Origin: Monocercomonoides exilis PA203
Lineage: Eukaryota; Protista; Preaxostyla
Reading direction: 5' to 3'
Length of the DNA stretch: 64,000 nucleotides
Assembly: GCA_001643675.2 (NCBI GenBank)
Contig: LSRY02000008.1
Location: 1,736,001-1,800,000 of the forward strand
Shown in pieces: positions 11,851-52,024 of the stretch (within the stretch, counting starts at the first letter, position 1; each line of letters begins with the position of its first letter). The notes under the pieces were generated by a model. It saw nothing but the letters and a program-made list of their open reading frames with translations. It was not told the DNA's origin and did no database searches. Both the position numbers and the translations under genes were made by a program.

Positions 11851-12599
11851 TTTCTTCCTCTTCTTCTTTCTTTCTATTTTTCCTCAAGCATCCCTCAAAA
11901 TCATATAATCCATCTTCTCTTTCCCTTCTTTCTTCTCATTCACAGATTTTCATAAAACTTTCTCTTTCAATCGAAGTTCCAAAAAATATTTCTTCTTCTC
12001 AATCTCTCGTCAGACTCCTTCTTCTGTCATTTCATCAGTTTTTTTTTTTTTCTTTTCTTTTGGCATGATTGCACTATATGCCTCACAAAGCAATAAAAGG
12101 ACTCCTCTTCTATTCGTTTCCATTGTTGAGCCCGCATTTTCCTTTATCTATACAAAAACCGTTGAACCTTTTGCTGAGCAAAAATGTCAAAACGCCATCT
12201 TTCCATATTCCTTGCGAGTGCATTGGCATTGGGAATTTGTGCAAACATTCCAATATCATTAAAAGAAAATATTTGAAAAATTGAAAAAGAAAAATTGAAA
12301 AAGAAACATTTTTATTTCATGAGCTTCAAAAATAATCACACTTCATTTACATATTCTTCTTCATCATCATCTTTTGTCTTTCAAAATATTGCTCCTTTCT
12401 GCTTGCAAAACCCATCTGCTATGTCTCAGCTGCCAGTATCACAGCCAATAGCATTGCTTCTCTTCTGCTCCAAAATTGTGCTCATTTCCAATCTCAGCTT
12501 CGCTCGCACTCGAACAATTCATGCAACCAAAATGTTTAAAATTGACGAGAATAACGAAGAAAGCGAAGAAGAGGAAGAAGATGAAAATTGTTGAATAAG

Positions 12600-14138
12600 G
12601 AAAAACAGCTTCTGTTCCAATCGAACTCTCCGTCCTCCCTTTCCCAATGACCGAAATCTTCTTTGATCCAATCTCAATAGTTGTTGCTTCGCTTGTGTGA
12701 TTCCCTTCCATCAGCGTGACTGACAAGCTAATCTGCACCTCACACATCTCAAACGCCTTCTTCACTGTCAGACACGGATATGTTTCATTTGACCCACACA
12801 ACTCAAAATTATCATTTCCACCAACAGAAACATATATCGTCTTATCCTTTAGCCAATCCACTTTTCTGTGTGTTGATATGACCAAGCACCTGCATCAGCA
12901 TAATTGTTGCAAAGCAGATCCTCTTATCATTTGTGTTTGTGGTGTAACATTCATGAAACGGATTTCCTGAATCCAAATACAGATTGTATGTATCGACATA
13001 CTCAATATCATGCCGTATGGATTAGTTGCATCCCTGCAATTGCATTCATGAAAGAAAAAAATAACAATAAGTTCCATTGACTGGTTTTTCTGTTTATTCT
13101 GGTCAATCTTAATCCTCCTCCCTCTTGTCGCGCCGAACATGAAATGAACTGTATGCTCCTCATTTTGAATGCAACTGGAACAGTGTACAACACATCCCTC
13201 CACCAATCAGAATTTACAACCGAGCATGAAGTGAAACTGCAGTCAAACACACACGCACTTTCCCCTTCTCCACTTTCTGTTTCAATGCATCCTGTTCCAG
13301 ATACCTGAAATGATTGCAATATTAATCCTCCTCCATAGCTTGATGCCTTGCAATTCCGGAATTCACAATCACTGATCCGAGCACATGATGAAATAGAGCT
13401 GGCATACATTCCGCCTCCATGTTGGTTTTGAGCTGTACACGCATTGAACACATTATTTTCGATATACACAGATTTGATTGTGTTGCACATAATTCCACCT
13501 CCACGGCTGTATGCAAAGCAATTATTAAACAGACAACGTGAAACTGAGAGCTCTCCATTTCCCTTGTTGTACATCCAAATTGCACCTCCACTCGATTTTC
13601 CATCAGCATACGAATCACTTTCTCCTGTCGTCTTCGATCCATTCCATTCACACCAAACAAATTTATTCGCTCCATTTTCTGTTGTATTTTGCCTCTCTGG
13701 AGTCAACTTTCTGTCTGAAGTTCCTTCACAAACAACATTCCTTGCCCGACAACATTTAATAAAAGAGGTGTTTGAAGCAGTCAGAGAAGTAAAGGGATTG
13801 TTGAGGGAAGTGACAATCCCGCCATCATATGCATCACAAACAGACGTAAATGAGCAGCTGCTCATCAGACATGTAGCTTGGGTTGACATTGTGGTTGAAG
13901 GTGAACATGCGTCATTTGCTGTTGATATGTTGAAAAATGTCAAATGAGAAAGAGATATAAGGGGTGAAGACTCATGATAAAAAATTGGCAAAAAAGAAGA
14001 AGTGCAACTCACACACAAAAATACTATCTTCGACGCTGTCTTCTCTTCCTCTGCCTCTTGGAGCAATCTGGCAAAATATTTAATAAATTCAAAATCCTTC
14101 TTCCCGCCTCTTCCGCTGCTTCTCAAAGGGATATCCAT
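12600..14138 (-). pseudogene. Beta-helix cassette 3 (type B module), frameshifted
   Basis: ORFs 13008-14138, 12895-13206 and 12439-12885. Module WLKDKTIYVSV..CGSNETYPCLTVKKAFEMC. Homology ends at SSIGTE (~12610). Confidence 0.85.
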
Positions 14139-16470: not shown

Positions 16471-17308
16471 ATCTTTAAATCCTCTTCTACACTTTCAGTC
16501 TCATCGTTTTCTTCATCTTCATCCCCTTCATCTACTTCATTTCCTTCATCGAATTCTTCTCTGTCATTATTTTCAAATGCATCTCCTCAACAAAGAAATT
16601 ATATATTTTTTCACCCCTTCTTGGTCATTATCTTCTTCTTCTTCACCAAATCGTTTTGAAGGATATTTGTTGAAAGAGTTATTTGAGAAGAAGCAGAACA
16701 GGAGAATGGAAATAGGATGTTTTTTTGGAGAAGCAGAAGAGAAGCAAAGCTGTTGAATGAATGATGGAAGATGGAGATGAGGGGAAATGGGTGCTTTTGC
16801 AGAAAGAAAAAATGATCTAGAGAAGAAGAAAGAAGAAAGAAGAAGAACAGAAGCAATGAAGAATAGAGATTGTCAAAGGCATGAACACATAATTTTTTGA
16901 ATAAAAGAAATAACATTTTATCAAACTTTTCTAATATATATTTTTATTTGAAATTAGGATCTTTTTGGAAGAATATCTTCGTTGGTTAAAAGCGCGAGGG
17001 ATGAGGAAAGATGGATTTTGAGGCGATCCCGGGAAGATGGCAGAAGGCAGGAAATGGAATGGGCATAGATGAGTGAGCAAAGGGAAACATATGAAATGTG
17101 TGGAAAAGATGGGATTTGCGAAATGGAAAAGGTATTTTGAAAAGGGGGAGGGGAAGCGATAAAAGATAGAGAGAAGAGAAATTGATGATAAGGCAGAAGG
17201 AGAAATTTGAGAAATAATTGAGAAGAAGAAGGCATTAATAAGAAAACAGATTGAAAACGGATGAAAGGCGAGGAAATGGAGGAAAAAGGAATTTGAAGAT
17301 AGAATGTT

Positions 17309-19066
17309 TTGAGGAGCATTTGCAGAAGAGTGGGAAAAAGGGAAGAGGATGAAAAGTTTGTTGTGGGGATGGGGAAGGATATTGAGGCAGGGGCATTTGA
17401 TGTGAGTGGGAGCATTGGGGCGTTGACAAACATCACATTGAAAGGATGGAGAAGAGGGGAGAGATATACTCGGGAAGGCTGTTTGGAGGGAAGGGATATG
17501 GAGGGGAGAAGGGTGGAGATGAAGAGAAAGGAGGAGAAAGAGGAGAAGGAGGCAGAGGAAGAGGAAGAAAAGGAGATGGATATGGAGAAGGTATTGAAGG
17601 GAGTATTTCGGTGAGTGAATCACGATTCTCTTCTTTTTGTGTCTCATCAGCCCCATTCCTGTCATCCCCTTCAATACCCCTTGTATCCCTCTCCAAACTC
17701 ACATTTTTCAACATCTCAACAGCAAATGATGCATGTTCACCTCCAACCACTGCATCAATCCAAACCTCTTGTTTTATGAACAGTTGTTCATTTTCGTCTG
17801 TTTGTGATGCATATGATGGCAGGATTGTTCATTCCCTCAACAATCCCTATGCCTCTTTAACTGCCTCAAATACCTCGTTTGTTGGATGTTATCGGACAAG
17901 AAATGTTGAATGCAGTGGAACAGCAGAGGTTCCTTTGAAGCCAGACAGACAGAACGAAACATTCAATGGAGCTAATTCATTCACTTGGTGCGAATGGAAT
18001 GGATCGAAAACATCAGGAGAAAGTGATTCATGGACGGATGGAGAATCGAGCGGAGGGGCAATCTGTGTGAATGGTTTATCATCTGCCTCTGTGTCTGTTT
18101 CCCATTGTATATTTAATAATTGTTTTGCATACAGTCGTGGAGGGGGAATAATGTGCGCAAGCATAAAAGAAGTTAAAATAGAGAACAACTCATTTAATGC
18201 ATGCACAGCTCAGAATCATTATGGGGGTGGAATGCTTATTTATGCGATTTCATTGTGTGCTCGAATCAGCGATTGTGAATTCCAGAATTGCAAAGCAAAT
18301 AGCTATGGAGGAGGGCTTTATCTTAATAATTTTAATATTTCAGGAACCGGATGCATTGAAGCAGAAAATGAAGGAGGAGAGAGTGCGTGTGTGTTTGACT
18401 GCAGTTTCACTTCATGTTCGGTTACAAATTATTATGGTGGAGGCATGCGTTGTTACAATGTTCCTAATCAATTCAAAATGAGGAGCATTCAATTTATTTC
18501 ATGTTCAGCATTAAGAGAGGGAGGAGGATTATTATTACAGCCAAATCGAGAAACAATACCAAATGATGGAATTCATTGTTATTTTTGTTCTTCCATGAAT
18601 GCAGCTGCAGGGATGCAAATAATCCACGTGGGCATGACGTTGAATATGTTGATTATTACAATCTGTATTTGGAATCAGGAAATCCATTTTATGAATGTTA
18701 CACCACAAACACAGATGAGAAGAGGATCTGCTTTGCATACAATTATGCAATTGCAAATGTTTGGACATATGACGAAATATCAAAAAGGATTGGCTGAAGA
18801 GAGGGATTCTCAATCGATTTGTGGCAGTGAGTGGAGGAAACGCAGAAGAGTTGTGTGGATTGGATGAGTCAAGTGCATGCAGAACCATTGGTGTTGCAGT
18901 TGAAAAGAGCGTGATTCAAGTGAGCCTGTCAGTCACGCTGATGGGAGGGGATCACACAAGCGAGACAACAACTATTGAGATTGGAACAAAAAGATTTAAG
19001 TCATTGGGAAAAGAAGAGGATTCATCATCTTTGGAAATATCGGACTCACAATGGAAACATCATTGA
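17309..19066 (+). pseudogene. Beta-helix cassette 4 (type A); duplicate of cassette 6
   Basis: ORFs 17309-17614, 17446-18867, 18576-18797 and 18821-19066. As far as compared, it differs from 29050-30810 only by homopolymer length. Confidence 0.9.
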
Positions 19067-21560: not shown

Positions 21561-21621
21561 CTTGAAAAGGTGTGCCCTCGTTAGTCAGAGCCCATCTTTT
21601 TTTTTTCATTATTTCCTTTTT

Positions 21622-21654
<33 letters not shown>

Positions 21655-22231: not shown

Positions 22232-23238
22232 ATATCTATAAGGATAATTGTTTTGATGTTGACCTGTTCAGCCATTTCTTTTTTCAATTATTTGAAAGTT
22301 GTTCTTCCCGAAAAGAAACATCTTTTTTGTTGAACAAATTCAATTTATTATAATTAATGAAACTTAGCAGTTGGTTAAAAACTAATATTTCAAGATACCT
22401 CATCTTTCGTTTTTTCATGAGAGTATCATTTTTGATATCATCGATAAGAATCACGAAGATGGTGTGATGCGCCAGGCAGATATTGAAAAATGGGTAATTT
22501 GTTTTAAAATATATCACTTTTGAATTATTAACTTCATTTGTGACATTCTCATATTGTTATCAACTTTCAATTCACAATCTCAAATTATTATTATGATAGT
22601 TTTGACAGCTTTTCACTCAACACATTTCAATTCAAAAGAAAATTTGAGATTTTGAAATGAAAGTTGATAACAATATGAGAATGTCACAAATGAAGTTAAT
22701 AATTCAAAAGTGATATATTTTAAAACAAATTACCCATTTTTCAATATCTGCCTGGCGCATCACACCATCTTCGTGATTCTTATCGATGATATCAAAAATG
22801 ATACTCTCATGAAAAAACGAAAGATGAGGTATCTTGAAATATTAGTTTTTAACCAACTGCTAAGTTTCATTAATTATAATAAATTGAATTTGTTCAACAA
22901 AAAAGATGTTTCTTTTCGGGAAGAACAACTTTCAAATAATTGAAAAAAGAAATGGCTGAACAGGTCAACATCAAAACAATTATCCTTATAGATATTAGTG
23001 ATTATTTTTGATATCAAATTTTTTTCTTTCAAAAATTTCGGTTCGAAAATTTTCCTTGGATATCAACAAAAGAACACTGAAAAATGAAAAAACTCATAGA
23101 AGACATCTTCATCTTTATTTGAGTGAAAACATTTGTTTTTGGAATAGTTTTGATGATTTTTCAATTTGAATACAAAATCTCTTCCCAATGACAAACAAGC
23201 TTAGAAAAATGAACACCCCGAAAAAAGTTATAATTTCA
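21989..23238. repeat. Fold-back palindrome: 598-bp arms (21989-22586 / 22641-23238), 54-bp spacer
   Basis: Mirror ORFs 22284-22517(-) and 22710-22943(+). The only mismatches seen are at 22570 and 22575, in the innermost 17 bp. Confidence 0.95.
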
Positions 23239-23251
23239 AAAATAATCACCC
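22996..23251 (-). mobile_element. ~256-bp MITE-like element, TIR GGGTGATTATTTTTGAAAT
   Basis: Ends TAGTGATTATTTTTGATAT ... ATTTCAAAAATAATCACCC; non-coding; dispersed copies of equal length. Confidence 0.65.
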
Positions 23252-24305: not shown

Positions 24306-25936
24306 TCAATGATGTTTACATTGTGAGTCCGATATTTCCAAAGATGATGAATTCTCTCCTGTTCCAATAACTGAAATCTTCTTTGATCCAATCTCAATAG
24401 TTGTTGCTTCGCTTTGATGCTTCCCTTCCATTAATGTGATTGCCAAACTAATCTGCACCTCACACATCTCAAACGCCTTCTTCACTGTCAGACACGGATA
24501 TGTTTCATTTGCCCCACACAACTCAAAACTATCATTTCCATTCACCGAAACATATAACGTCTTGTCCTTCAGCCAATCCTTTTTTGATGTTTGATCAAAT
24601 GTCCAGGCACCTGCATTTGCATAATTGTGTGCATAGCACATTCTCTTGTCATCTGTGTTTGTGGTGTAGCATTCATAGAATGGATTTCCAGAATCCAAGT
24701 ACAAATTGTTATTATCGTAATATATTGCATCGTGCCCATATGGTGTGGATGCAGATCTACACTTGCAATCGTGAAAAAATAAGAAGAAGCAATATAGTTT
24801 ATTATCCGGTGCCGTTTCTCGATTTGGATGCAAACATAATCCACCTCCATTGGATAATGCAAAACATGAAATAAACTGAATGGTACTCATTTTGAATTGT
24901 GTCGCAGGAACGGTAACGCAATACATCCCTCCACCAATCGTATTTGTGACTGAGCATGAAGTGAAACTGCAGTCAAACACACACGCACTCTCCCCTTCCC
25001 CATTTTCTGTTGGAATGCATCCTGACCCTGAAACACTAAAACTGTACAATCGTAAACCACCACCTTCGCTGTTAGCTTTGCAATTCTTAAATTCGCACCC
25101 ACCGATCCGAACACATTCCAAAATCGAATAAGCATACATTCCTCCTCCGTAATGGTTTTGTGCTGTGCAAGCATTGAACACATTATTTTCGATATATACA
25201 GATTTGATTGTATGACATATAATCCCACCACCACGGCTGTACGCAAAACAATTATTAAACAGACAATGCGAAACTGAAAGTTCTCCAGAATTGAGATTGT
25301 ACATGAAAATGGCCCCTCCACTCGATTTTCCATCCGTCCATGAATCACTTTCTCCTGTTGTCCTCGATCCACTCCATTCGCACCAAGTGAATGTATTCGT
25401 TCCATTTTCTGTTTCGTTTTGTCTCCCTGGAGTCAACTTTCTGTCTGAAGTTCCTTCACAAACAACATTTCTTGTCCTTCAGCATTTAATAAAAGAGGTG
25501 TTTGAAGCAGTCAGAGAAGCCAAGGGATTGTTGAGGGAAGTGACAATCCCGCCATCATACGTATCACAAACTGATGAGAATGAGCAACTATTCATCAAAT
25601 ATGTGGTTTGGGATGAGGAAGTGGTAGAAGGCGAACATGCGTCATTTGCTGTTGAGATGTTGAAAAACGTGAGTTGTGAGAAGGAAACAAGGGGAATGAA
25701 GACTCATGAGAATAATTGGCAAAAAGAGGAGAAGTGCAACTCACACACAAAAATACTATCTTCGACGCTGTCTTCTCTTCCTCTGCCTCTTGGAGCAATC
25801 TGGCAAAATATTTAATAAATTCAAAATCCTTCTTCCCGCCTCTTCCGCTGCTTCTCAAAGGGATATCCATAAGAGAAAAGCATCTTTTTTCTTCAGTGCC
25901 ACCAAATGGATACGGAACTCCAATGTTATTTGTCAA
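24306..25936 (-). pseudogene. Beta-helix cassette 5 (type B)
   Basis: 376-aa ORF 24306-25436. The upstream framework continues but has an in-frame TGA at 25479-25481 (IKC*RTRN vs IKCCRARN). Ends with SSSLEISDSQCKHH. Confidence 0.85.
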
Positions 25937-27239
25937 CTGTTTTCCACAGAATCTCTTTTTCTTCTGTTGTCATTTCCTGTCTTCTTTCCAAATTCAATTT
26001 TCTCGCATATATTTTGAACACATGCAAGGGCTCCGGTATCAATAAAAAAACAGAAAAAAATAAAGAAAAATTACAGACAACGAAAATAAATATATTTCAA
26101 TATAAAAAAAGATGAAATTAAAAAACAAAGTATTTTTATAAAAATAAAAATTAATAAATAAACTGTTCCTCTTTCTTTTTGCAATCTTCCTCTTCTCCTT
26201 CCTCTTCTTTTCCTGCCAGCCCCAGCCTATTCAGCATTGCTTTCCTCCGTTCTTCACCTCGCAAACAGACCTCCCAGCCCTGTCACTTCTCAATGCTTCC
26301 AATGCTATTTCGTGCTATCCTCTCATTGCGCCAGATCAATCTTCACTTTTGTCAATCATTTTCACAAAAAAGCACATATCTCTTTGAAAATAAAACCATA
26401 AACAAACAAACAAATAAACAAATAAACAAATAAATATCGAATTCACAAACGCAACATGTGTCAACATCCAGAAATGATAACTGCCCCCCTTCCGCTTCCC
26501 TTCCCCTCCTCTTCCCTGTCCTTTCCGCTCAACTCTCCCTCCCCCAGCAAAGCACACGACCCACACCCTGACCATTTGCTTCATCGCAGCAACACCAAAA
26601 CCCCAAGATGTCACCTCTCTCAGCCATCATTCACCCCATTTTTCTGCCATCTTCCTTTGCTCTTTCCTTCTCATCCCATCTGCTCCCCTCTCCTGCTGCC
26701 AATTTCCAACACTTCCACAGCCTTCATCTTTCTGTTGCCTCTTCGCCTTTTTCCCTCCTCCCTTTCATTCCTCTATTGATTTATTTCATTTTTTCATATG
26801 TAATTTTCCATTTTTCTCTCTTTCTCTCTCTAAAACATCACAATTCCCCAACCAACACTCTTCTGCTAGCATCCATTTCATTTGCAGTGTGCAACACTGC
26901 CCCCACCGTTACTGCCCGCAATACACATTATCCACAACAAATCACAAGAATCAAAAAAACATAGCAAACACATCCTAACAACCTGCTGAAAACAAAAGGC
27001 AAAACATCCTCATCTTCTAAAATTTTCTTTCCTCTTGTCCTCCCTTCATCTCCACAATTCTCCCCAAAAAAACACACAAAACAATCCCAATTATCGAATT
27101 TGCCAACAACCCAGACATCAAATCCCTTTCAAATTCAAAACACCCACAACCACCTCGCCGTAATGCAAATAACAGCCGTCATTGCACATCCACCGGCCTT
27201 TGCCTCAGTGCTCGGAGTGTACCGAGAAAAATACAATTT

Positions 27240-28210
27240 GTCTATTCCAGTCTTCAATTATGCATACGATCGTCACAATTTTGAAAAAAAAGAAAAAACT
27301 GAAAACTACCTTTGTAAATGGGAGGGCATCAGACAATAATATTTTATGGTGGATTTGCTGAATTATTGTTTTTGAAGGCGTCTTGTGCGACTGGGACTGG
27401 TGTTGAATTTGGAAAGACTTGAAGCGATTTTTTGTACAAGAAAGGGGATGGAGCACCGATGCTTTGAAAATATTATATATATCACGGGATATATGTATTT
27501 CTGATAATTCTATATAATGTGAAGATATTTTCATCCGTATCCTTCCCCAAGTCATGATTCGGACAATTTTATATTAAAAGTCAATTTATTTTTTTGAAGA
27601 GGACAATAGCAGGGAATCACACCAATATTACCTACAAACAGCAAATATTAAAACATGAGGATTTTTTTAACGAAAAATTTCACAGTTATTTTTGATGCAA
27701 TATGCAATGGGTCGAAATGCAACGAAAAACGAGTTTTAATGGAGCAGAAATTCATGGAGTCGGAAAATGCCAAATACAAAAAGGAAGTGTGACCAATTTT
27801 TCTGAAAAGGCTGCCTTTTTTTTAAAAGAGGAAGAGGACATTTTCAGAAAATTTGTTGGAGGGATTGGAGTGGATGCATTGAATGGAAAATGGAGACAAG
27901 TGGCTGAAACAAGAGATTGGCGGTTGTTGCTGGACGAATGGATTTTCTTGGGTTGATAAGGACAAGACAATATTTTTATGGACTGAGAAGAGTAGTGGAA
28001 CTAAATTTGATTGCTTGGTTTGAGAGCGATAATGCAAGAAAAACAGGCAGTTCGGCGTAATACAAGCAGCTGGAGGCAAATGACAGGCAAAATGGATTTG
28101 AATCATTTTGCAATCGCCTTTGGCATTGTATCATCGAAGGGTTATCCATTGAAGCAGAGAACGAGGTTTTTTTTGAAGCAATCTTCGACAGAAAATATCC
28201 GACATTAAAG
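27240..28210 (+). other. Core element copy 3 (inside the 8-kb duplication)
   Basis: Near-identical to 15500-16470. Confidence 0.75.
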
Positions 28211-29049
28211 ATCTTTAAATCCTCTTCTACACTTTCAGTCTCATCGTTTTCTTCATCTTCATCCCCTTCATCTACTTCATTTCCTTCATCGAATTCTTCT
28301 CTGTCATTATTTTCAAATGCATCTCCTCAACAAAGAAATTATATATTTTTTCACCCCTTCTTGGTCATTATCTTCTTCTTCTTCACCAAATCGTTTTGAA
28401 GGATATTTGTTGAAAGAGTTATTTGAGAAGAAGCAGAACAGGAGAATGGAAATAGGATGTTTTTTTGGAGAAGCAGAAGAGAAGCAAAGCTGTTGAATGA
28501 ATGATGGAAGATGGAGATGAGGGGAAATGGGTGCTTTTGCAGAAAGAAAAAATGATCTAGAGAAGAAGAAAGAAGAAAGAAGAAGAACAGAAGCAATGAA
28601 GAATAGAGATTGTCAAAGGCATGAACACATAATTTTTTTGAATAAAAGAAATAACATTTTATCAAACTTTTCTAATATATATTTTTATTTGAAATTAGGA
28701 TCTTTTTGGAAGAATATCTTCGTTGGTTAAAAGCGCGAGGGATGAGGAAAGATGGATTTTGAGGCGATCCCGGGAAGATGGCAGAAGGCAGGAAATGGAA
28801 TGGGCATAGATGAGTGAGCAAAGGGAAACATATGAAATGTGTGGAAAAGATGGGATTTGCGAAATGGAAAAGGTATTTTGAAAAGGGGGAGGGGAAGCGA
28901 TAAAAGATAGAGAGAAGAGAAATTGATGATAAGGCAGAAGGAGAAATTTGAGAAATAATTGAGAAGAAGAAGGCATTAATAAGAAAACAGATTGAAAACG
29001 GATGAAAGGCGAGGAAATGGAGGAAAAAGGAATTTGAAGATAGAATGTT

Positions 29050-30744
29050 TTGAGGAGCATTTGCAGAAGAGTGGGAAAAAGGGAAGAGGATGAAAAGTTT
29101 GTTGTGGGGATGGGGAAGGATATTGAGGCAGGGGCATTTGATGTGAGTGGGAGCATTGGGGCGTTGACAAACATCACATTGAAAGGATGGAGAAGAGGGG
29201 GAGAGATATACTCGGGAAGGCTGTTTGGAGGGAAGGGATATGGAGGGGAGAAGGGTGGAGATGAAGAGAAAGGAGGAGAAAGAGGAGAAGGAGGCAGAGG
29301 AAGAGGAAGAAAAGGAGATGGATATGGAGAAGGTATTGAAGGGAGTATTTCGGTGAGTGAATCACGATTCTCTTCTTTTTGTGTCTCATCAGCCCCATTC
29401 CTGTCATCCCCTTCAATACCCCTTGTATCCCTCTCCAAACTCACATTTTTCAACATCTCAACAGCAAATGATGCATGTTCACCTCCAACCACTGCATCAA
29501 TCCAAACCTCTTGTTTTATGAACAGTTGTTCATTTTCGTCTGTTTGTGATGCATATGATGGCAGGATTGTTCATTCCCTCAACAATCCCTATGCCTCTTT
29601 AACTGCCTCAAATACCTCGTTTGTTGGATGTTATCGGACAAGAAATGTTGAATGCAGTGGAACAGCAGAGGTTCCTTTGAAGCCAGACAGACAGAACGAA
29701 ACATTCAATGGAGCTAATTCATTCACTTGGTGCGAATGGAATGGATCGAAAACATCAGGAGAAAGTGATTCATGGACGGATGGAGAATCGAGCGGAGGGG
29801 CAATCTGTGTGAATGGTTTATCATCTGCCTCTGTGTCTGTTTCCCATTGTATATTTAATAATTGTTTTGCATACAGTCGTGGAGGGGGAATAATGTGCGC
29901 AAGCATAAAAGAAGTTAAAATAGAGAACAACTCATTTAATGCATGCACAGCTCAGAATCATTATGGGGGTGGAATGCTTATTTATGCGATTTCATTGTGT
30001 GCTCGAATCAGCGATTGTGAATTCCAGAATTGCAAAGCAAATAGCTATGGAGGAGGGCTTTATCTTAATAATTTTAATATTTCAGGAACCGGATGCATTG
30101 AAGCAGAAAATGAAGGAGGAGAGAGTGCGTGTGTGTTTGACTGCAGTTTCACTTCATGTTCGGTTACAAATTATTATGGTGGAGGCATGCGTTGTTACAA
30201 TGTTCCTAATCAATTCAAAATGAGGAGCATTCAATTTATTTCATGTTCAGCATTAAGAGAGGGAGGAGGATTATTATTACAGCCAAATCGAGAAACAATA
30301 CCAAATGATGGAATTCATTGTTATTTTTTGTTCTTCCATGAATGCAGCTGCAGGGATGCAAATAATCCACGTGGGCATGACGTTGAATATGTTGATTATT
30401 ACAATCTGTATTTGGAATCAGGAAATCCATTTTATGAATGTTACACCACAAACACAGATGAGAAGAGGATCTGCTTTGCATACAATTATGCAATTGCAAA
30501 TGTTTGGACATATGACGAAATATCAAAAAAGGATTGGCTGAAGAGAGGGATTCTCAATCGATTTGTGGCAGTGAGTGGAGGAAACGCAGAAGAGTTGTGT
30601 GGATTGGATGAGTCAAGTGCATGCAGAACCATTGGTGTTGCAGTTGAAAAGAGCGTGATTCAAGTGAGCCTGTCAGTCACGCTGATGGGAGGGGATCACA
30701 CAAGCGAGACAACAACTATTGAGATTGGAACAAAAAAGATTTAA
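29050..30744 (+). CDS. Beta-helix cassette 6 (564-aa open frame, type A), no ATG-led signal peptide
   Basis: Uninterrupted ORF (TTG start in the track) with a Gly/Glu-rich segment and the full repeat domain. It stops at TAA where paralogs have Ser (KKI*VIG). Confidence 0.85.
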   Translation: MRSICRRVGKREEDEKFVVGMGKDIEAGAFDVSGSIGALTNITLKGWRRGGEIYSGRLFGGKGYGGEKGGDEEKGGERGEGGRGRGRKGDGYGEGIEGSISVSESRFSSFCVSSAPFLSSPSIPLVSLSKLTFFNISTANDACSPPTTASIQTSCFMNSCSFSSVCDAYDGRIVHSLNNPYASLTASNTSFVGCYRTRNVECSGTAEVPLKPDRQNETFNGANSFTWCEWNGSKTSGESDSWTDGESSGGAICVNGLSSASVSVSHCIFNNCFAYSRGGGIMCASIKEVKIENNSFNACTAQNHYGGGMLIYAISLCARISDCEFQNCKANSYGGGLYLNNFNISGTGCIEAENEGGESACVFDCSFTSCSVTNYYGGGMRCYNVPNQFKMRSIQFISCSALREGGGLLLQPNRETIPNDGIHCYFLFFHECSCRDANNPRGHDVEYVDYYNLYLESGNPFYECYTTNTDEKRICFAYNYAIANVWTYDEISKKDWLKRGILNRFVAVSGGNAEELCGLDESSACRTIGVAVEKSVIQVSLSVTLMGGDHTSETTTIEIGTKKI

Positions 30745-32744
30745 GTCATTGGGAAAAGAAGAGGATTCATCATCTTTGGAAATATCGGACTCACAATGGA
30801 AACATCATTGAGATGATGTTTATTGTTTGAGCACTTTTAATTGCCAGCACAAGATTTTGAACAAAACATTTCAAGGCAATGGCCATGTGGATCTGCATTC
30901 TGTGCTTTGGAAGATGTTGAGCACCTGAGCCAGGAAAGCACAGAATGAATGATCGTTTTTGTTTCTTGAAGTGCTGAATGGCGATGGGAAGAGGAGTGCT
31001 TTCCACTTAGATCTGAGCAATTGGTTGTCATGTTAATGCTGCTGAAACGTATTGACAGGCAAAAGGGGTTTGAAGCATATGAAGCGGAAGATGGCAGGTT
31101 AAAGGTGCCTTTGAGGAATTTACTTGAACGGTGATAAACAAATGAAGTGAGCCTTGGGGTTTGTTTGTTATTGGATGGAGAAAAGTATTGTTGGAAGAGA
31201 ATAAGAGTGAAGCAGCGTTTGATTTGTTCATTAATTTTAGAAGAGTTTTCTTTTTTTTTTTTTTTCAATTTTTGCAAAAATCAAATGTATTGCCATTTTT
31301 GAGATATTTTGTGCTTATTATTCTTTTTCTTGAGTAGTTCTGATGATAAATAAGTGTGCAAAAATTAAAATTGACGAGATAAAATGTTTTAGGGATAATA
31401 TGAATTGGGTATTGGATATGGACAAGGAAATGGGGCATTTCAAACATTTTCATTGAAAAAAGTATCTGTGAAAAAGAATGAGAAAGAATTATTGCAATGA
31501 GCCCAAAATGGAGCCAAGAACAGAAAATATCGAGACACATCCAAACAGTTGTTTTAGAAAAATTCTTTATTCCAACTGTTCAGAGAGGATCAAGTCAAAT
31601 GTGAAATTGAATTTTGTGTAAAACTCGAGAAACATTTTCAAATCATCAAAAAGAGTCAGTTCTGATATGTGAGGATTTTGAAACACAAAAAAAAGGTGAC
31701 TTTATTTTTTCTCTATTATTATTTTTAAAACGACGATTTTCATTTTCATTTCCTTAATTTTTTGATTGTTTCTGAGGATTGTCAAAATGGTTCGAAGAGA
31801 TGATGAAAAGAGAAAAAAAATGAAGATTTGGACAAGCGATGCAATCAATTCAGATTAAAAATACAACAGGAATTAAATAATTTGAAACAGGGGTTTTCAA
31901 CCTTGTTGGCTGTATCATGATTCAATTATCATCCAAATCACTTTCTTTTGGAAAACACAAAATTTTTCAAATTTTTTTAGAAAATGAAACTGAGTGATTT
32001 GTTTTCACATCATTCTTTTTCTTTCAAGAAATTTTAATTAAAGTATTGTTTTTATTTTTAACAAACGGATATGAAAAATAATGAAACAGCCTATTCTCAA
32101 GTTAATTATGTTCCGTTACATGTTTGTGGTGAATGCTTTATAATGAAAAACATGTTATTCTTTTTGAAACATCGCAAATGTTTGATTGACAAGTGGGAAC
32201 ACAAAACATCATTTGATCTATTTTGAAACAAACTCTTCAAACTGTTCAAAGACACAATAAAAATGAAGTGGTCTTGTCTGCATATTGAAACTCGTATTTT
32301 TATTTATTTTGATTGGACGGTTTAAAGAATTTAGCAAATTATAACTTTAATAATTAATTGAATGAATTCAAAATACTTAATTGATTTCACTCTTTATTTG
32401 CGATTTAAAAGAAATATCCTTATTTTAGGAAACAAATATTAAAAACACCTTTTAAAAACACAAAACTTTAATTAATAACTTTTTGTTCATTTTTTATTCC
32501 TTTTAACATTCAAAGGAGTCAAAATCATCTAAATTTTTATTGTCATCTTTCATTAATTATCTGAATAAACGATTCACTTTTTTTCTCAAATGACAATTAT
32601 TCTTCTTCAATTTTTCCAGTTTTCATCTTGTGTTTTTCATAAATCTCATCCCATTCATCAATAAGTTTTTCTTATGAAATTTCGAATACGAAAAAACCGA
32701 AACAATGTGAGTGTGAAGGAATGAAGTATTTAAAGACTGAGGAT

Positions 32745-33305
32745 GTTTCATTAACACAGATCCAGATTCATTGCTGAGGACTCAGCTGTTAATGAAGGCT
32801 TTTTTGATGACTGAAGGGGTGAATGCTGTGTGAAGAGCTTGTGGTAATACATCTGCAACAGCTGTTCTTTTTGAAGATGAAAAGGTGGATGATGGGGAGC
32901 TGTAATTGTTTGAAAGCTCCGACTTCAATACTGCAAAAACACCTCTGTCCATAGGCTGCGATATGTGTGTAGTATGTGGAACGAAGGTTACGACGTCTAT
33001 TTCAGCTTCTTAAAACTGTCTCCATATCGTTGGATCTTTCCTTGATGAATGTGGATCAATGAGAAGAAGGCAACGATAAGATTCTTTTGTGGGATATTTT
33101 TTTCTGTCAATAATTGAAGACAGCAAAATTTTAAGAGTATATATACAGAATGATGTTTATTCTTCGTGCCATTATGTTTGGACAAATGTTAAGAAATGAT
33201 GCGCATAGTAAATAATGTTATTATTGAAAAGTTACGCTCATCCACAGTTCGTCTGAAGGATGAAAGAAGCCTTCAGCAGCAATTCCATGTTAACATCTGC
33301 ATCAC
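32745..33305 (-). mobile_element. DDE_1 transposase remnant (duplicate)
   Basis: Copy within the 8-kb duplication. Confidence 0.8.
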
Positions 33306-33725
33306 CTTGAAAAAGGTGTGCCCTCGTTAGTCAGAGCCCATCTTTTTTTTTTTCATTATTTCCTTTTTTTTTATTTTTATTTTTATTTTTATTTTTTATT
33401 TTTTATTTTTTTTTTTTATTTTTTTTTTTTGATAAAAACAAACACCTTTTTAAATTATGCTTATGAAAGGATAACTTTCCAATAATTCAATAATTTCTTA
33501 ACATAAATTTCATCACTATATTCAATCAATAAACCTTAATTAAATATTAATTTATTAAAATACTATTTTTAACTTTGACAAAAGTCCTATCATTTTTTGA
33601 AAATTATCATCAAAATTTTCTTATTCATTTTTTTATGTTTAAGAAGCTTAATTATCAGTGTCTCATTTTTATTATTTTTCATTTTTTAAAAGCTTAAAAA
33701 CTGTGTGATTATTCATGTTCAATAT

Positions 33726-33980
33726 AAATGATAATTTATGAAATCATAACATTTTTGGTAGTGTTCATTTTTAAAAGGTTGTTTGTCACTGGGAAGAGAT
33801 TTTGTCTGCAATTTGTGAATTTTTCACAATTGTTTAATAAATAAATCTTTTTGTTCAAATAAAGATGTTGTTGTTTTTTATAGGCCTTTTCACTCTTCAG
33901 CGTTCTTTTGTTGATATTGAAGTTTTATTTTCGATTCGAAATTTTTGTATGAAATGATATGATTTCAAAAATAATCACCC
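33726..33980 (+). mobile_element. MITE-like element, diverged copy
   Basis: AAATGATAATTTATGAAAT ... ATTTCAAAAATAATCACCC followed by (AT)n; body homologous to the other copies. Confidence 0.65.
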
Positions 33981-35029
33981 ATATATATATATATAAGTTA
34001 TTCTTTTTGAAAAGTTGCATATGTTAAATATCCAGGACAAATGAGAATGTTCCTTGTTTGATCAATTTTTGCAAAAAAATCAATCAAGATTTTCCACAAT
34101 TCACATATTCTCGCTTCATATAGGTTGTTTTATTCAAATTTGCAAAGTGATAAAGTCTGATGGATTTATCACCAAAAATTATCAAAAAGGTCAAAATTTT
34201 ATATAACCCTGATATTAAACATTTGCGACTTTTCAAAAAGAATAACGCACACACATTTATATTATCTTTCATTTGTCAAATATTATTGTCACGCTCAGAA
34301 AGAAAGGATTAAAGATGTGATCCACACTCAGAGAAAAGAAATGATTAAAAAAAGAAATACATCCACTTAAAAATTCTTTCACAGAGAATTGATAAATCAG
34401 TGTATTAATAATAATTGTCTTTTTTAAGAACCGAAGTGTTTTTGACAACGATTTATTTCTTTGAATGACAAAACTCGTTTTTTTCGCGTTTCTTGAGTTT
34501 TGGAGATTTTTCTCTTTTCTCCATCGCTTTCATCAATTTGCACGCTTTCTGATAATTAGTGTTTATTGACTGCATTCCAAAAAGGCAAATCTCACAGCTC
34601 ACTCATTTTATTAAAAATTAAAAAATTAATGAATGAAAAATCGAAAAATCATTAAAACGCACTTAAAGCCCCAAAACAATGATTATTGTGGATCTTTTCC
34701 AAATGCTTTTTGATTCAATGAAAAATCAAAAATCCTTTTGATAAAAAAATTTTTTTTGTTTTCCTGACCATTTGTAAAGAATTGACAAAACCAAAAATCT
34801 TCTGATACAAAATCTCAAAGCAACTTCCACTCTCCTCTCGAAAATTAAAAATAGCAAAATATATTTCGTCATCTCAAAGAACCTTTTCAGCCACTTCAAT
34901 AAATCTCTCCCCAGAATATTCATCTCAAAACACTCTCCATTTCGTGTGACTCAGCTTTCATTGTTCGCTTTATCTTTTCTTTTCATTCCCTCTCTCACCC
35001 CACGGAACACTTTCTCTTCCCCACAATCC

Positions 35030-36718
35030 TCACAATTCTGTTTCACAAAACTGCAGCCGTGTAATATTCGTGTCTTTGATCTCCACACCAACCATCGACA
35101 GTTGTGACAGCACCACCACAAACACTGACGAAGACATCACATAGCCTCCAGTTTTACTCGTTGTGATCACAACATCCTCCAATGAGAGTGACCCACTCCC
35201 ATCAGACACCACAACCACACTCGGAGAAGAAGGATTTGCACTTGAGTTGCAGTCAACCTTCATGTGCAATAAACCAAGATGACCTGTTGACACACTGAAT
35301 AGAATTCCTACCGATGAAAGTGCCCCTGTTCCAATCAAACTTTTATCTTTGCCTTTCCCAATGACAGAAATCTTCTTTTCTCCAATCTCAATTGGTGCCA
35401 CCTCGCTTTGATGATTCCCTTCCATCAGCGTGATTGCCAAACTAATCTGTATTTCACACATCTCAAACGCCTTCTTCACTGTCAGGCACGGATTTGATTC
35501 ATTTGCTCCACATGACTCTAAATTGTCATTCCCACTCACAGAAACATAAATCGTCTTGTCCTTCAACCAATCCTTCTTTTCCGTGTGCTGATATGCCCAA
35601 GATCCTGAACTGGAATAGTTATAAACATAACATATCCTTTTATCATTACTGTTTGTGGTGTAGCATTCATAAAATGGGTTTGAGTGTAAATGTGAACTGT
35701 AATAGTCCAGATAATATACATCGTGTCCATATGGTGTTGAAGTTGTTCTGCATTTGCATTCATGGAAGAACAGGAAATAACAATAGAATCCATCATCAGG
35801 CTTTTCTGTTTTTTCTGGTCTGAAGCATAATCCTCCTCCATTTGCAGCTGTTGAGCATGAAATAAACTGAATGCTCCTCATTTTGAATGCAATTGGGATT
35901 CCATAGCAACGCATGCCTCCGCCAACCGTATTAACAACTGAGCAAAAAGTGAAATTGCAGTCAAATACGCACGCACTCTCACCATTATCATTTGCTGCTG
36001 GAATGCATCCAGTTCCTGAAACGTTAAAATTGTTAAGATTAAGACCACCTCCGCGTTCTCTTGCCATGCAATTCTGGAATTCACACCCGCTGATCCGAAC
36101 ACATGTTGAAATAGTAAAAACGAACACCCCTCCTCCAATCCATGTTTCAGAAGCACAAGCATTAAATGTGTTATTCACAATCTCAACTGATTTAATGCTA
36201 TAGCATGAAATCCCTCCGCCTGCGTAATACGCAACACATCCCTTGAATGCACAATGCGAAACTGAAACAGTAGCAGACGATTGACCGAACATGAATATTG
36301 CGCCACCGTTCGAAGTGCCATCGGAATATGTTTCACCTTTTCCTGTTGCCTTCGATTCACTCCATTCACACCAAGTGAATGAATTAGTTCCATTGTCAGT
36401 AATGTTCTGCCTCCCTGGCTGTTTCTTATTATCTGCAGTTCCAGTGCATTCAACATTCCTTGCACGACAACACCCAACGAATGAGGTGTTTGAGACAGTC
36501 AAAGAGGCCAATGGACTGTTCAAAGAAGGAACAATTCCGCCATCATATACGTCACAAACAGACGAAAATGAGCAACTATTCATAAAACTTGATGTTTGGG
36601 ATGAGGAAGTGGTAGAAGGTGAATATGCCTCATTTGATGTTGAGATGTTGAAAAATGATAATTTGGAGAGAGAAGCAAATGGCATCGAGGGAGTTGAGAG
36701 GAATGGAGTTTGACTCAC
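35030..36718 (-). CDS. Beta-helix cassette 7 (562-aa open frame, type B, extended 3' end)
   Basis: Uninterrupted ORF. A deletion at the 5' border removes HFSSFCVSSA and disconnects it from the leader. Continues past SLIGTGALSS into LFSVSTGHLGLLHMKVDC. Confidence 0.85.
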   Translation of the reverse strand: MSQTPFLSTPSMPFASLSKLSFFNISTSNEAYSPSTTSSSQTSSFMNSCSFSSVCDVYDGGIVPSLNSPLASLTVSNTSFVGCCRARNVECTGTADNKKQPGRQNITDNGTNSFTWCEWSESKATGKGETYSDGTSNGGAIFMFGQSSATVSVSHCAFKGCVAYYAGGGISCYSIKSVEIVNNTFNACASETWIGGGVFVFTISTCVRISGCEFQNCMARERGGGLNLNNFNVSGTGCIPAANDNGESACVFDCNFTFCSVVNTVGGGMRCYGIPIAFKMRSIQFISCSTAANGGGLCFRPEKTEKPDDGFYCYFLFFHECKCRTTSTPYGHDVYYLDYYSSHLHSNPFYECYTTNSNDKRICYVYNYSSSGSWAYQHTEKKDWLKDKTIYVSVSGNDNLESCGANESNPCLTVKKAFEMCEIQISLAITLMEGNHQSEVAPIEIGEKKISVIGKGKDKSLIGTGALSSVGILFSVSTGHLGLLHMKVDCNSSANPSSPSVVVVSDGSGSLSLEDVVITTSKTGGYVMSSSVFVVVLSQLSMVGVEIKDTNITRLQFCETEL

Positions 36719-44370: not shown

Positions 44371-45637
44371 ACAGAAATCTTCAGTTGATCAGTTTAAATG
44401 AATATCAATTGATTTGCTTTTTCAAAAACATTTTCTGTCAACTTTTTTTCACATTTCAATCCTTTATTAATACAAAAGAAATCATAAGAGACTTAAATAA
44501 TCTCAATTTGAAAGTTCAGATATTATTTAAATTTGTCTCAATTGCTTTCATTGCTACATATTCAACATGGAAAAACTCAATAACACACTGCCGAGGTGGA
44601 TTTATTTGTCATTTGTTTCAAAGAAGTTTTTTATTATTTTGGTCCATTGTCATAATCAAAGAAATGACAATCTTACAAATAATCTTTTGAATTGAACTTT
44701 TTTGTGTGCTTTATCATTTCCATATTTTTTGATGAATGATTAATTTTCAATTGCTTTCAAGTGGATAATTCATTTCAATACTTATTTCAATTCAGGTGAT
44801 TCTTCTTTGCCAATCTTCAATGATGAATGATGTCTTCCCATAATTTGAATTATGATTCAAGAACATATATCCTTCACGAGATTGTAATTAAACAATGGAA
44901 ATTGCTTATTATCGCATTGTCTTATTTAATATTGTTTATTGGAATAGACTCCTATGATTGAATAAGATGAAGCACAACACAAGAAAAGGATGAAATGAAA
45001 TTATAAATCGAATCATTTTGAAGAACAATATTTCATTTTTTCCAACTTTTTATAAATTAAAAGGATCTTCCACAGAATAATTAATCTAACTGTCGTTCTT
45101 TCTTGAAAAGACATTCATTCTGCATATGAGAAATTCTTTTTGACATCATATTATTTTCTATTTAAAATTCCGATTTGATGTTTTGTTTCAAAAATGAGCA
45201 AACACATGGGAAAAAATTATTTTTGATTTCCAGTTTGATGTCTTTTTTTTCTTTTTGAAATATTCGTTTTTCTTGATTTCAAATTAGGGAACGTTTGTAT
45301 ATTTATTTATTAAAATTTACTAATACTCAAAAAAAAAAAAAAATAAAAAAATAAAAATAAAAAAATAAAAATAAAATAAAAATAAAAATAAAAATTGTTC
45401 ATCAGAATTCAGAAAATAAGCTGGAAACACGTTTCCTTTTTTGAAAAGAATTATTCAAAAATAATTGGACTGCTTTCAATACATCAAACTGATGAACAAA
45501 CATTTTGCATGCAAATACAATAAAAAACAAAAGAATTTCAAATTTGTGCTTATCGCAACTTTTTGTGCACAGCAATGACAACAATATGAAATCAGGGCAA
45601 TTTCATTTCCTAACTGTTTTTGGTGCAGCATACATAA

Positions 45638-47143
45638 CTAGCTTCCGCAAGCTGAAATGCAAACCAATTTGTCTTTCAGCCAATCCATTTTCGTTGTTTG
45701 GCCAAAAACCCAAGAACCTGAACTCGAATAATAATACACATAGCACACCCTCTGATTATCAGTGTTTGTCGTGTAACATTCATTGAACGGATTTCCAGAA
45801 GACAAAAAAACATTGAATTGATCATAATATATCGCATCGTGACCATATGGCGTATTTGCAGAGCACTTGCATTCATGAAAGAACAGAAAATAACAATAAA
45901 AATAATTGGTTGGAACTGCTGTGTTTCTGGATTCAAAATACAATCCCCCTCCATTTGCTGTTGCTGAACATGAAATTAACTGAATGCTCCTCACTTTGAA
46001 TGCAGCAGGAACAGTGTTGCAATACAGCCCTCCGCCCCATGTGCTTATTGTTGAGCACGAAGTGAAATTACACTCAAACACACACGAGCTCCCTCCTTCT
46101 CCATCTTCTTCCCCGATGCACCCTGATCCAGGCACACTGAAATTGAACAACCTCAACCCTCCCCCATCGTGGTGAGCCTTGCACATCTGGAAGTCGCACC
46201 CACTGACAAGGGCACATGAACTTATTTGGTAAGCATACACCCCTCCCCCGCCAAAGTTATGCGCTGTGCACGAATTGAACACGTTGCTCACAATCTTGAT
46301 CGTCTTGATTGCGTGGCACATGATTGCTCCCCCATGGTAGAATGCAGTGCAATCATTGAATGAGCAATGAGATACAGATAGTTCTCCAGAATTGAGATTG
46401 TACATTCGAATTGCTCCACCATTTGAAGCATCATCAGTATAATCATCTTTGTTTCCAGTCGTTTTCGACCCGTTCCACTCGCACCAAATAAACGAATTGG
46501 TCCCATTTTCTGTTTCATTTTGTCTCCCCGGAGTCAACTTTCTGTCTGATGTTCCTTCGCAAACAACATTTCTTGTTCTGCAACATCCAACAAACGAGGT
46601 ATTTGAGGCAATCAAAGAGGCAAAGGGGTTGTTGAGGGAAGGAACAATTCCGCCATCATACACATCACAAACTGATGAGAATGAGCAACTATTCATCAAA
46701 CATGTAGCTTGGGCTGACGTAGTGGTTGGAGGTGAACATGCCTCATTTGCTATTGAGATGTTGAAAAAAGTGAGTTTGGAGAGGGACATTAGGGGAATAG
46801 AAGGGGATGATAGGAATGGGGCTGATGAGACACAAAAAGAAGAGAATCGTGATTCACTCACTGAAATACTTCCTTCAATATCTTCTCCTTCTCCATCTCC
46901 TTCTCTTCCTCTTCCTCTTCCTATTTCTCCTCCTTCTCCTCCTTTTTCTTCACCTCCACCCTTCTCCCTTCCATATCCCTTCCCTCCAAATAGCCTGCCT
47001 GAATAGATCTCTCCCCCTCTTCTCCACCCTTTCAATGTGACGTTTGTCAACACCCCAATGCTTCCACTCACATCAAATGCCCCTGCCTCAACATCCTTCC
47101 CCATTCCCACAACAAACTTTTCATCCTCTTCCCCTTTTCTCAC
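45638..47143 (-). CDS. Beta-helix cassette 8 (501-aa open frame, truncated just after WLKDK)
   Basis: Uninterrupted ORF. Leader and Gly-rich part closely match cassettes 4/6, but the variable domain differs. Confidence 0.85.
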   Translation of the reverse strand: MRKGEEDEKFVVGMGKDVEAGAFDVSGSIGVLTNVTLKGWRRGGEIYSGRLFGGKGYGREKGGGEEKGGEGGEIGRGRGREGDGEGEDIEGSISVSESRFSSFCVSSAPFLSSPSIPLMSLSKLTFFNISIANEACSPPTTTSAQATCLMNSCSFSSVCDVYDGGIVPSLNNPFASLIASNTSFVGCCRTRNVVCEGTSDRKLTPGRQNETENGTNSFIWCEWNGSKTTGNKDDYTDDASNGGAIRMYNLNSGELSVSHCSFNDCTAFYHGGAIMCHAIKTIKIVSNVFNSCTAHNFGGGGVYAYQISSCALVSGCDFQMCKAHHDGGGLRLFNFSVPGSGCIGEEDGEGGSSCVFECNFTSCSTISTWGGGLYCNTVPAAFKVRSIQLISCSATANGGGLYFESRNTAVPTNYFYCYFLFFHECKCSANTPYGHDAIYYDQFNVFLSSGNPFNECYTTNTDNQRVCYVYYYSSSGSWVFGQTTKMDWLKDKLVCISACGS

Positions 47144-47813
47144 TCTTCTTCAAATGCTCCTCAAAACATTCGATCTTCAAATTCCTTTTTCCTCCATTTC
47201 CTCGCCTTTCATCATTTTCAATCAGCGTTCTTATAAAAATCATCTTCTTCTCAAATTCTTGTAAGACTCCTTCTTTGGTCATATCATCAATTTCTCTTCT
47301 CTCTATCTTTTATCGCTTCCCTTCCCCCTTTTCAAAATACCTTTTCCATTTCGCAAATCCCTTCTTTTCCACCCATTTCATATGTTTCCCTTTGCTCACT
47401 CATCCATTCCCATTCCATTTCCCGCCTTCTGCCATCTTCACGGGATCGCCTCAAAATCCATCTTTCCTCATCCCTCGCGCTTTTAACCAACGAAGATATT
47501 CTTCCAAAAAGATCCTAATTTCAAATAAAAATATATATTAGAAAATTTTGATAAAATGTTATTTCTTTTATTAAAAATAAAAAATATGAATTCAAACCTT
47601 GTATAATCTCCATTCTTCATTGCTTCTGTTCTTCTTTTTTCTGTCTTTTCTTCTTTCTCCTTCTCCAGATTATTTTTCCTTTCTGCAAAAGCACCCATTT
47701 CCCCTCATCTCATTCTTCCATCATTCAATCAACAGCTTTGTATCTCTTCTGCTCCTCCAAAAATAAACATTCCATTTCCATTCTCCTGTTCTGCTTCCAT
47801 TCGAATTGCTCCT

Positions 47814-51800: not shown

Positions 51801-52024
51801 AGATTCGCATGTCGAAACGCTTCCATCTTCACCTCCTTATCTTCTCCTTGCTCTTGGAGTCATGTCGCAAAATATCTCAAGAAGCTCATATCCCATTGTC
51901 TTGCCTCTTCCACTTCTTTTGATTACATGCTCTCTTTAAATATCTTTTTCTCCGCTTTTCTCCTTTTGCCTTCTTTCCATATTCCATTCGCATTCTTCGC
52001 TTTTGAATGTTAGCACAAAAGTCC

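Follow-up and report, generated by a model that had tools for sequence, protein, structure and literature searches.

The VLR presents one hypervariable aromatic face. In lamprey, its diversity is drawn from donor cassettes (PMC12264053), and Anaplasma msp2/p44 relies on functional pseudogenes and segmental gene-conversion mosaics (PMC2789410). In beta-helix lyases the substrate groove is made by T3 and PB1 (PMC9410043), while in Pmp repeats the T3 loop lies on a common face, framed by a motif pair, Fxx[N/C] with GG[A/G]-hydrophobic (PMC10715098). The Pmps of Trichomonas are mostly TM proteins and increase adhesion (PMC6701047).

The bacterivore Monocercomonoides exilis feeds on bacteria with unknown prey selectivity and cannot be grown axenically (PMC12308965). 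Its largest gene family is reported to be TKL (320 TKL of 332; PMC6759080), which overlaps unclassified repeats (PMC8767320). The family described here resembles EhTMKB1, which is likewise an expanded, mostly truncated SP-ectodomain-TM-kinase family of a gut protist (PMC2880585). EhTMKB1 differs in having another ectodomain and members that are at least 95% identical, and its truncations mostly remove the 5' end (PMC2880585), whereas the variable tip is kept here; the terms "gene conversion" and "recombination" are absent from the main text of that paper.

The window analysed here, a stretch of 64,000 nucleotides, comes from M. exilis, and several M. exilis protein models are encoded in it near letter for letter. 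It holds 12 copies of one domain on both strands, two of which are exact duplicates. Searches of mostly open-access literature on M. exilis and its group gave no description of this ectodomain, its groove or the fragment arrays; a term search of the available text of PMC6759080, PMC10703272, PMC8767320, PMC10463195, and PMC6701047 likewise found no description of the same ectodomain, groove, or arrays, and the available text of PMC6759080 and PMC8767320 makes no mention of the ectodomain, a variable tip, fragment arrays, or lost catalytic motifs.

A predicted beta-helix and its variable groove

The copy c6 is an open reading frame of 566 aa from stop to stop (29044-30744, plus strand), with nine FxxC, one GGAI, and five GGG-hydrophobic motifs, together with QFISC, GHD, and NPFYECYTTN. 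Using this frame as query, we found 167 proteins (250-797 aa), of which the best 120 are M. exilis models. A sequence-only reading of this DNA had described a constant Cys/Gly scaffold with residues that differ between copies just before each GGG. The scaffold is present in c6 as described, with an entropy of 0.16 bits across 121 family members, and each rung string listed before GGG occurs among the 12 window copies. The strings NYN, SSY, and TAN, missing from that list, also occur in window copies. The alternating positions after GGG had been called variable too, and the outward +2/+4 positions indeed reach 2.44 bits (121 members). The variable sites had further been described as aromatic and charged, which, by comparison with the other outward positions, holds for aromatic residues (Y/W/F/H, 34-36% vs 17.6%) and fails for charged ones (D/E/K/R, 15-16% vs 24%). 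The variable pattern extends beyond the end given for it (30330) to rung 7, at 30385-30399. As a whole, the observation is confirmed, and the interpretation placed on it is partly supported.

The domain that carries these rungs is the following.

29632..30549, plus strand: V (variable) domain, predicted right-handed beta-helix of ~8 rungs, FxxC...GGG-h-X-h-X

An AlphaFold2 model (121 sequences) consists of repeated strands; over residues 71-360 its block pLDDT is mostly 76-97, with a dip at 221-240. A VIA structural search matched the model to right-handed beta-helices with Z values of 15-19, the best being 19.1 (252 aligned, rmsd 4.0 A); among the matches listed, beta-helix lyases, hydrolases, and tailspikes predominate. 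The beta-helix proposed earlier is therefore borne out as a prediction, and the V domain is predicted to fit a beta-helix that is parallel and right-handed, pectin-lyase-like. Foldseek gave nothing at E<=0.001, a PDB sequence search with the family profile gave 0 hits, and Pfam on five window proteins gave nothing credible, PF02415 included. Weak matches to distant relatives were found in Streblomastix and Blattamonas at ~28% identity, and leads at the feature level point to Parabasalia and to PF02415 clusters, the recognition score being under threshold. Weak relatives bear PF02415 or PF13229. A scan of metagenome contigs for the family pattern yielded 64 pattern matches, 0 of them confirmed.

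Each rung follows the pattern x-V-x-I-x, turn, x-F-x, x-C, x-A, XXX, GGG, h-X-h-X. In our own mapping, the XXX tip corresponds to T3 and the strand after GGG to PB1. Model residue r begins at window position 29425+3(r-1), and the groove sites in c6 are as follows.

29872..29901, plus strand: rung 2 groove, T3 tip YSR and outward PB1, model residues 150-152, 157, and 159
29953..29985, plus strand: rung 3 groove, QNHY, positions 185 and 187
30040..30069, plus strand: rung 4 groove, NSY, positions 213 and 215
30166..30198, plus strand: rung 5 groove, TNYY, positions 256 and 258
30253..30282, plus strand: rung 6 groove, LRE, positions 284 and 286; top single-tree M2a sites 277 and 284
30385..30399, plus strand: rung 7 groove, after GHD, positions 321, 323, and 325

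Across the 121 family members, the T3 tips before GGG have an entropy of 2.41 bits, as compared to 0.81 for PB2, 0.99 for PB3, and 1.43 after Cys among the other outward classes; the groove exceeds the other outward positions by 1.43 bits (permutation p=1e-5). The variable sites thus fall on one face of the predicted beta-helix, as had been proposed, one face being deduced from rung register and DSSP rather than from atomic coordinates. The same pattern is seen in 81 full-length receptors, most of them outside the 121-member alignment, with 2.84/2.78 bits in the groove vs 1.07 in PB2 and 1.29 in PB3; the post-Cys position reaches 2.09 bits. Within residues 70-375, 16 of the 30 most variable sites fall among the 31 groove sites, and most of the others are T1 loops or the rung-1 loop beside the same groove. 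The groove string is distinct in 150 of 151 sequences.

The composition of the groove is also biased. Tyr makes up 20-25% of it vs a neutral expectation of 5-7%, and Leu, Ile, and Pro are depleted, which argues against free drift. Two receptor subtypes, with 16 and 19 sequences, have 0.3-1.4 bits at the equivalent GGG rungs of the stalk vs 2.1-2.7 at the groove positions of tip rungs 2-6. Since the stalk GGG rungs are not hypervariable in the same receptors, generic loop drift is disfavoured. A polysaccharide lyase of variable specificity was considered and ruled out; an invariant acidic or basic residue facing the groove was not found.

Full-length receptors and truncated arrays

We found the same domain as the N-terminal tip of ~80 dispersed single-pass receptors, mostly of 2,300-3,700 aa; the receptor analyses rest on annotated proteins rather than DNA and cover 81 non-redundant full-length loci. 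Of the M. exilis proteins with a length of 1,166 aa or more, 120 of 120 have the domain inside the first 300 residues; by hydropathy alone, 98 have one TM helix and 46 a hydrophobic N-terminus plus TM, and 84 combine TM with WxAPE. The receptors start ~250 residues earlier than the V model and run ~800-2,600 residues on to the TM helix. For one long member, the modelled first 1,012 residues begin with an N-terminal helix and a disordered linker; strand repeats follow and run unbroken through the V domain into the stalk.

PF07714 was found in six of 22 scanned long proteins and is precomputed for most longer-form matches, its match spanning profile positions ~157-258 alone. The receptor tail matches the kinase C-lobe alone, with ILK, CSK, and TAK1 as matches. 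The motifs HRD, DFG, and GxGxxG were found in 0 of 68 tails searched, so the tail is a predicted pseudokinase. Judging from sequence, the receptor architecture comprises a signal peptide, an ectodomain, one TM, and a kinase-fold tail, and it belongs to the dispersed genes, not to the window copies. PF07714 occurs in the receptors, which probably form part of the 320 TKL genes counted in M. exilis.

The copies in the window, with the duplication and the junction that connect some of them, are listed below.

3257..4640, plus strand: c1, fragment with six frameshifts
9983..11828, minus strand: c2, fragment
12589..14027, minus strand: c3, fragment with seven frameshifts
17303..18997, plus strand: c4, duplicate of c6, with four single-base homopolymer deletions as the sole differences
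24333..25790, minus strand: c5, fragment with an in-frame stop at model residue 70
29044..30744, plus strand: c6, receptor fragment truncated 5' and 3', in which TAA closes the modelled region
35006..36718, minus strand: c7, fragment
45539..47170, minus strand: c8, fragment that ends directly after the V domain
47970..49372, minus strand: c9, fragment
50397..51854, minus strand: c10, fragment whose alleles match RNA contigs
55931..57925, plus strand: c11, fragment with the farthest 3' reach, 135 residues beyond the model end
60434..62343, minus strand: c12, inverted duplicate of c11
25745..33890, no strand: 8.1-kb duplicated block, near-identical to ~14010-22140 with two mismatches, else short indels
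30742..30810, plus strand: 3' truncation junction common to c6, c5 (92% over 131 nt), P0001, P0027, and P0117

At the DNA level, all 12 copies are without stalk, membrane helix, and tail. In c6, the stalk, TM, and kinase-like tail are absent, and a signal-peptide region was looked for and not found. Translated searches of the window with 40 long proteins gave no match outside the 12 copies, which extend at most 135 residues past the model end and at most 139 before the model. The signal-peptide-containing parts of 22 long proteins gave no credible match to the window, while 17 of these 22 matched each other. The truncation result is independent of frameshifts, which are unreliable in this assembly. 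Because c4 departs from c6 by homopolymer deletions of the kind that long-read errors produce, frameshifts were not counted as decay.

Each fragment is centred on the V domain. In most groups of copies that have a truncation junction in common, groove identity is 20-34%; for example, the models P0001, P0027, and P0117, which share the 3' junction of c6, have grooves just 20% identical. The left edge of the 8.1-kb block coincides with the start of the c3/c5 domain, so that the same 5' region stands before two different V domains. A near-identical block (model ~280-345) is shared between c1 and the dispersed 2,120-aa protein P0129. The 3' ends of the fragments are ragged and continue into non-coding DNA, and several fragments in the window keep open frames of 480-650 aa. 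A set of alternative exons that would be joined by splicing to one shared constant region is ruled out by the presence of copies on both strands; this reading is also opposed by the lack of a downstream exon in the window and of a consistent GT at the junctions.

Short and long forms are placed differently in the genome, with contigs told apart by their lengths. Four contigs, which we call array contigs on the basis of this same count, hold 82 of the 104 placed short models, whereas the 72 placed receptors are spread over 38 contigs with just one on an array contig. With conserved columns taken from one half of the receptors, departures at these columns amount to 0.55% in fragments, 1.94% in held-out receptors, and 2.21% in 20 dispersed short copies, which indicates that the arrays are not decaying. 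The fragments are less diverse than the receptors, and their low load may reflect youth or homogenisation. Among the fragments there is no near-copy of any receptor; the closest match between the two at variable columns is 75%.

Four RNA runs from one study contain part of the stretch, and the contigs of two runs were examined; these contigs give no start, strand, or level, and their depth was not used for copy number or expression. The contigs are deep over segments conserved in the family, with none over the flank downstream of the c6 frame. At sites diagnostic between c6 and c10, they carry c10 alleles in 10 of 10 cases, with matching difference counts and a depth of 5-8. The family and a c10-type segment are present in the RNA libraries, and the fragments may not be silent. 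Missing RNA cover at sites specific to c6 is not read as silence.

Segmental exchange and selection

Within the window, c6 and c10 share a long identical tract.

29764..29985, plus strand: c6/c10 putative conversion tract, 222 nt identical to c10 ~51192-51413 (minus strand), rungs 1-3

Within this tract, 162 consecutive polymorphic sites are identical (p at the floor of 2000 permutations). Identical runs past the Bonferroni threshold occur in 14 of 45 pairs of window copies at the DNA level, and five segment trees beat one tree by ~360 log-likelihood units.

Exchange was also analysed at the protein level in 226 sequences (231 span the domain, five near-duplicates being removed). Tracts of at least 12 consecutive variable columns were found in 75 of 3,321 fragment-fragment pairs vs a shuffled mean of 3.9, in 37 of 6,642 receptor-fragment pairs vs 4.1, and in nine of 3,240 receptor-receptor pairs vs 1.2; P0172 with P0003 and P0167 with P0036 are examples. 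Fragments exchange chiefly with other fragments, and 53 of the 81 receptors have no 12-column tract. The receptor P0232 can be painted to 96% from several fragments and one receptor. For the longest tract of each receptor, the partner is a fragment in 44 cases and a receptor in 18, as compared to 37:22 with shuffled columns (p ~0.1); the preference for arrays by a binomial test (p=0.0013) is lost under this shuffle control. The per-pair excess between receptors and fragments has p=7e-4 at 10 columns and 0.06 at 12, the pairs being non-independent.

In the receptors, the tip does not follow its flanks, which is the strongest of the results on exchange. Between receptor pairs with stalk identity below 60% and pairs with at least 85%, identity rises from 46 to 78% upstream and from 46 to 79% in the membrane-proximal part, while over the same range there is no such rise in V, with 63-67% in its non-groove core and 20-23% in the groove. 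For example, P0204 and P0229 are 85-91% identical upstream, 50-61% over V, and 88-97% across the next 800 residues. This uncoupling of the tip from both flanks means that receptors receive replacement V sequence, and the sequence comparisons indicate that the tip is exchanged like a cassette.

Codon models were fitted with our own GY94/F3x4 code on 10 of the 12 copies, the two exact duplicates being dropped and frameshift codons masked; the set thus has 10 sequences only, with dS ~1.1. The groove omega is 0.93 (one tree) or 0.81 (five segment trees) vs 0.22-0.25 elsewhere, and 0.22-0.23 on other outward faces; with class-specific dS it is 0.55, and dS is then 1.7-fold higher. With a single tree, M2a vs M1a gives p=0.004 and M8 vs M8a gives p=5e-4, and the three best M2a sites (277, 284, and 323) are groove sites. 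With segment trees, M2a gives p=1 and M8 p=0.18, so that the single-tree signal vanishes. Pairwise NG86 dN/dS is saturated and uninformative. The positive selection proposed for the variable sites is thus not robust. Set against the outcomes that the sequence-only reading had named as refuting it, the result is divided: the sites do not scatter over the faces, and dN/dS above 1 was not obtained robustly.

Explanations and known systems

On balance, we think it probable that the family is a receptor repertoire diversified by gene conversion, in which tip-only array fragments are the likely donors and the groove likely binds ligands. The invariant Cys/Gly scaffold would give homology between rungs and prime gene conversion, which would swap blocks of one to several rungs among ~250 copies. 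Tip-only arrays would keep variants, reshuffle them, and supply them to the full-length receptor genes, presumably giving more than they receive, and the long stalk of each receptor would carry at its end a Tyr-rich groove unlike the others. The fold, the aromatics, and bacterivory suggest that the groove binds diverse external ligands, likeliest bacterial surface glycans or proteins, and the catalytically dead tail may signal as a scaffold. We put forward more tentatively, and with some doubt, an anticipatory repertoire in which about a hundred tip-only cassettes would be copied continually, rung by rung, into dozens of receptor pseudokinases. If true, it would be a protist counterpart of chicken pseudo-V and lamprey VLR diversification on a new scaffold, and would supply new Tyr-rich grooves for bacterial prey or microbes.

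It is unlikely, in our view, that the receptors diversify among themselves and that the arrays are by-product partial duplicates, which receive tracts and homogenise with no donor function. The array-partner preference, which is not above the shuffled control, the tracts shared between receptors (9/3240 pairs), the in-frame stop of c5, and the many frameshifts of c1 and c3 agree with such by-products, as does Entamoeba TMKB1, with six full-length genes among 35 members (PMC2880585). However, the V domain lies at the centre of each fragment, junctions are common to copies with dissimilar grooves in most groups, the scaffold load is lower in fragments than in receptors whereas dispersed short copies carry at least the receptor load, and P0232 can be assembled almost entirely from several fragments and one receptor. 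Antigenic variation, in which the variants would escape a ligand of a predator or parasite, or antibody of the host, rather than serve recognition, appears improbable. Known cassette systems such as msp2, vls, pilS, and VSG serve evasion (msp2: PMC2789410), the organism is a gut endobiont, and the variable domain is membrane-distal; yet evasion is expected to vary every exposed surface, while here one Tyr-rich groove varies and the other exposed faces and ~1,200-2,000 stalk residues are conserved, and there are ~80 recipient loci with a signalling-type tail as opposed to one expression site.

The remaining two readings carry still less weight. That the fragments are functional short proteins under selection, such as soluble decoys or lectins, is very improbable: the several long open frames, the low load, and the c10 alleles in RNA contigs would suit such proteins, but no signal-peptide region was found in the window despite the Cys-rich extracellular domain, the ragged 3' ends enter non-coding DNA, and the RNA contigs may derive from library DNA or from another locus with the same tract. 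We give hardly any credence to relaxed constraint, under which tolerant loop positions drift neutrally. The groove omega near 1 would agree with it, but beta-strand positions make up half of the sites, omega is 0.22 on other outward faces, the stalk GGG rungs are conserved, Tyr is in excess with Leu, Ile, and Pro depleted, and drift leaves the cassette-like uncoupling unexplained. The earlier preference for a ligand-recognition repertoire over drift has the support of the receptor context, the conserved stalk rungs, and the Tyr bias.

For the amitochondriate model M. exilis, these results show in concrete terms how part of its probably largest gene family and some of its "unclassified repeats" are built, and they make the variable receptors a candidate, open to testing, for the recognition of prey or partners. 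With its invariant Cys/Gly scaffold and ~31 free groove positions, the beta-helix would also make a natural scaffold for binders. If the donor role of the arrays is true, cassette gene conversion would serve recognition and signalling in a unicellular eukaryote, beyond immune evasion by pathogens.

As in Pmp (PF02415), a motif pair frames variable T3 loops on one face by rung register. In contrast to Pmp, Cys replaces the ladder Asn here, with nine FxxC and no rung FxxN, and the canonical FxxN/GGA(I/L/V) pair is not found; the T3 loops have 3-4 residues, and variability reaches the PB1 strand. Unlike the chlamydial Pmp autotransporters, there is no C-terminal barrel, and the long forms end in TM plus a kinase-like tail. 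The lamprey VLR likewise has a solenoid scaffold with one hypervariable face. The proposed likeness to a VLR paratope surface holds for variability on one predicted face and is otherwise an analogy only, since there is no LRR here (LxxLxLxxN is absent) and the predicted fold is a beta-helix; unlike VLR, the receptor genes are complete in the germline, and the organism is unicellular.

Our best reading is that the system is closer to the msp2/vls cassette systems than to VLR. As far as the available descriptions of msp2/p44, Borrelia vls, Neisseria pilS, and Treponema tprK go, all share clustered truncated copies centred on a hypervariable region, conserved ends, and mosaics by segmental exchange, with ~100 copies here. 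Segmental mosaics between truncated and full-length genes are also found here (37/6642 vs a null of 4.1). The differences are that those systems have one expression site, whereas ~80 dispersed full-length loci are present here, and that here the host of the system is a eukaryotic gut endobiont, variation is restricted to a groove, and the receptor carries a cytoplasmic pseudokinase tail.

Ectodomain and cytoplasmic tail of the receptors

On the V domain, the variable predicted beta-helix tip of the long single-pass receptors, the outward PB2 face is nearly invariant across rungs 4-7, with C192, R194, C236, F238, K265, R267 and Y298 as its residues. This face is a candidate interface, or may lie beneath the insertion at 217-234.

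Span holding these PB2 residues: model residues 192-300, window 29998-30324 in copy c6

The distance from V domain to transmembrane helix in the receptor ectodomains clusters near 1,180, 1,575 and 1,945 residues, which suggests that whole stalk modules of ~380 residues have been gained or lost. The receptor tails are strongly conserved (P0135, P0149, P0151-P0153, P0159, P0160 and further long receptors). None of 68 receptor tails carries HRD, DFG or the Gly-rich loop, and the catalytic-loop position reads L-x-[NS]-L-[SN]-P in 45 of the tails. Many M. exilis proteins that bear the annotation 'tyrosine kinase' may in fact be pseudokinases.

Repeats and independence of the array

Four repeat features were located in the window.

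21979-22586 / 22641-23248: fold-back inverted repeat, 608-nt arms, 99% perfect, 54-nt spacer
54358-59115 / 59241-64000: inverted duplication, 4.76-kb, 99.9% identity, 125-nt spacer
40714-41878: microsatellite, 6-mer unit, ~197 copies
37917-38151: tandem repeat, 15-mer unit, ~16 copies

The fold-back inverted repeat, which sits where the 8.1-kb duplicated block ends, is either a true palindrome or a long-read artefact. The inverted duplication carries the truncated receptor fragments c11 and c12, and may be an assembly fold-back.

Two other fragments, c1 (3257-4640) and c2 (9983-11828), are near-identical to the protein models P0112 and P0016, whose contig label in both cases is one of 172,346 nt. 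That contig could duplicate a portion of the window's array or be a different assembly of it, and the four contigs where most short models cluster may therefore represent fewer than four independent loci.

Relatives in other species

Outside M. exilis, weak relatives were found in Blattamonas and Streblomastix (P0259, P0161 and P0260), with ~28% identity.
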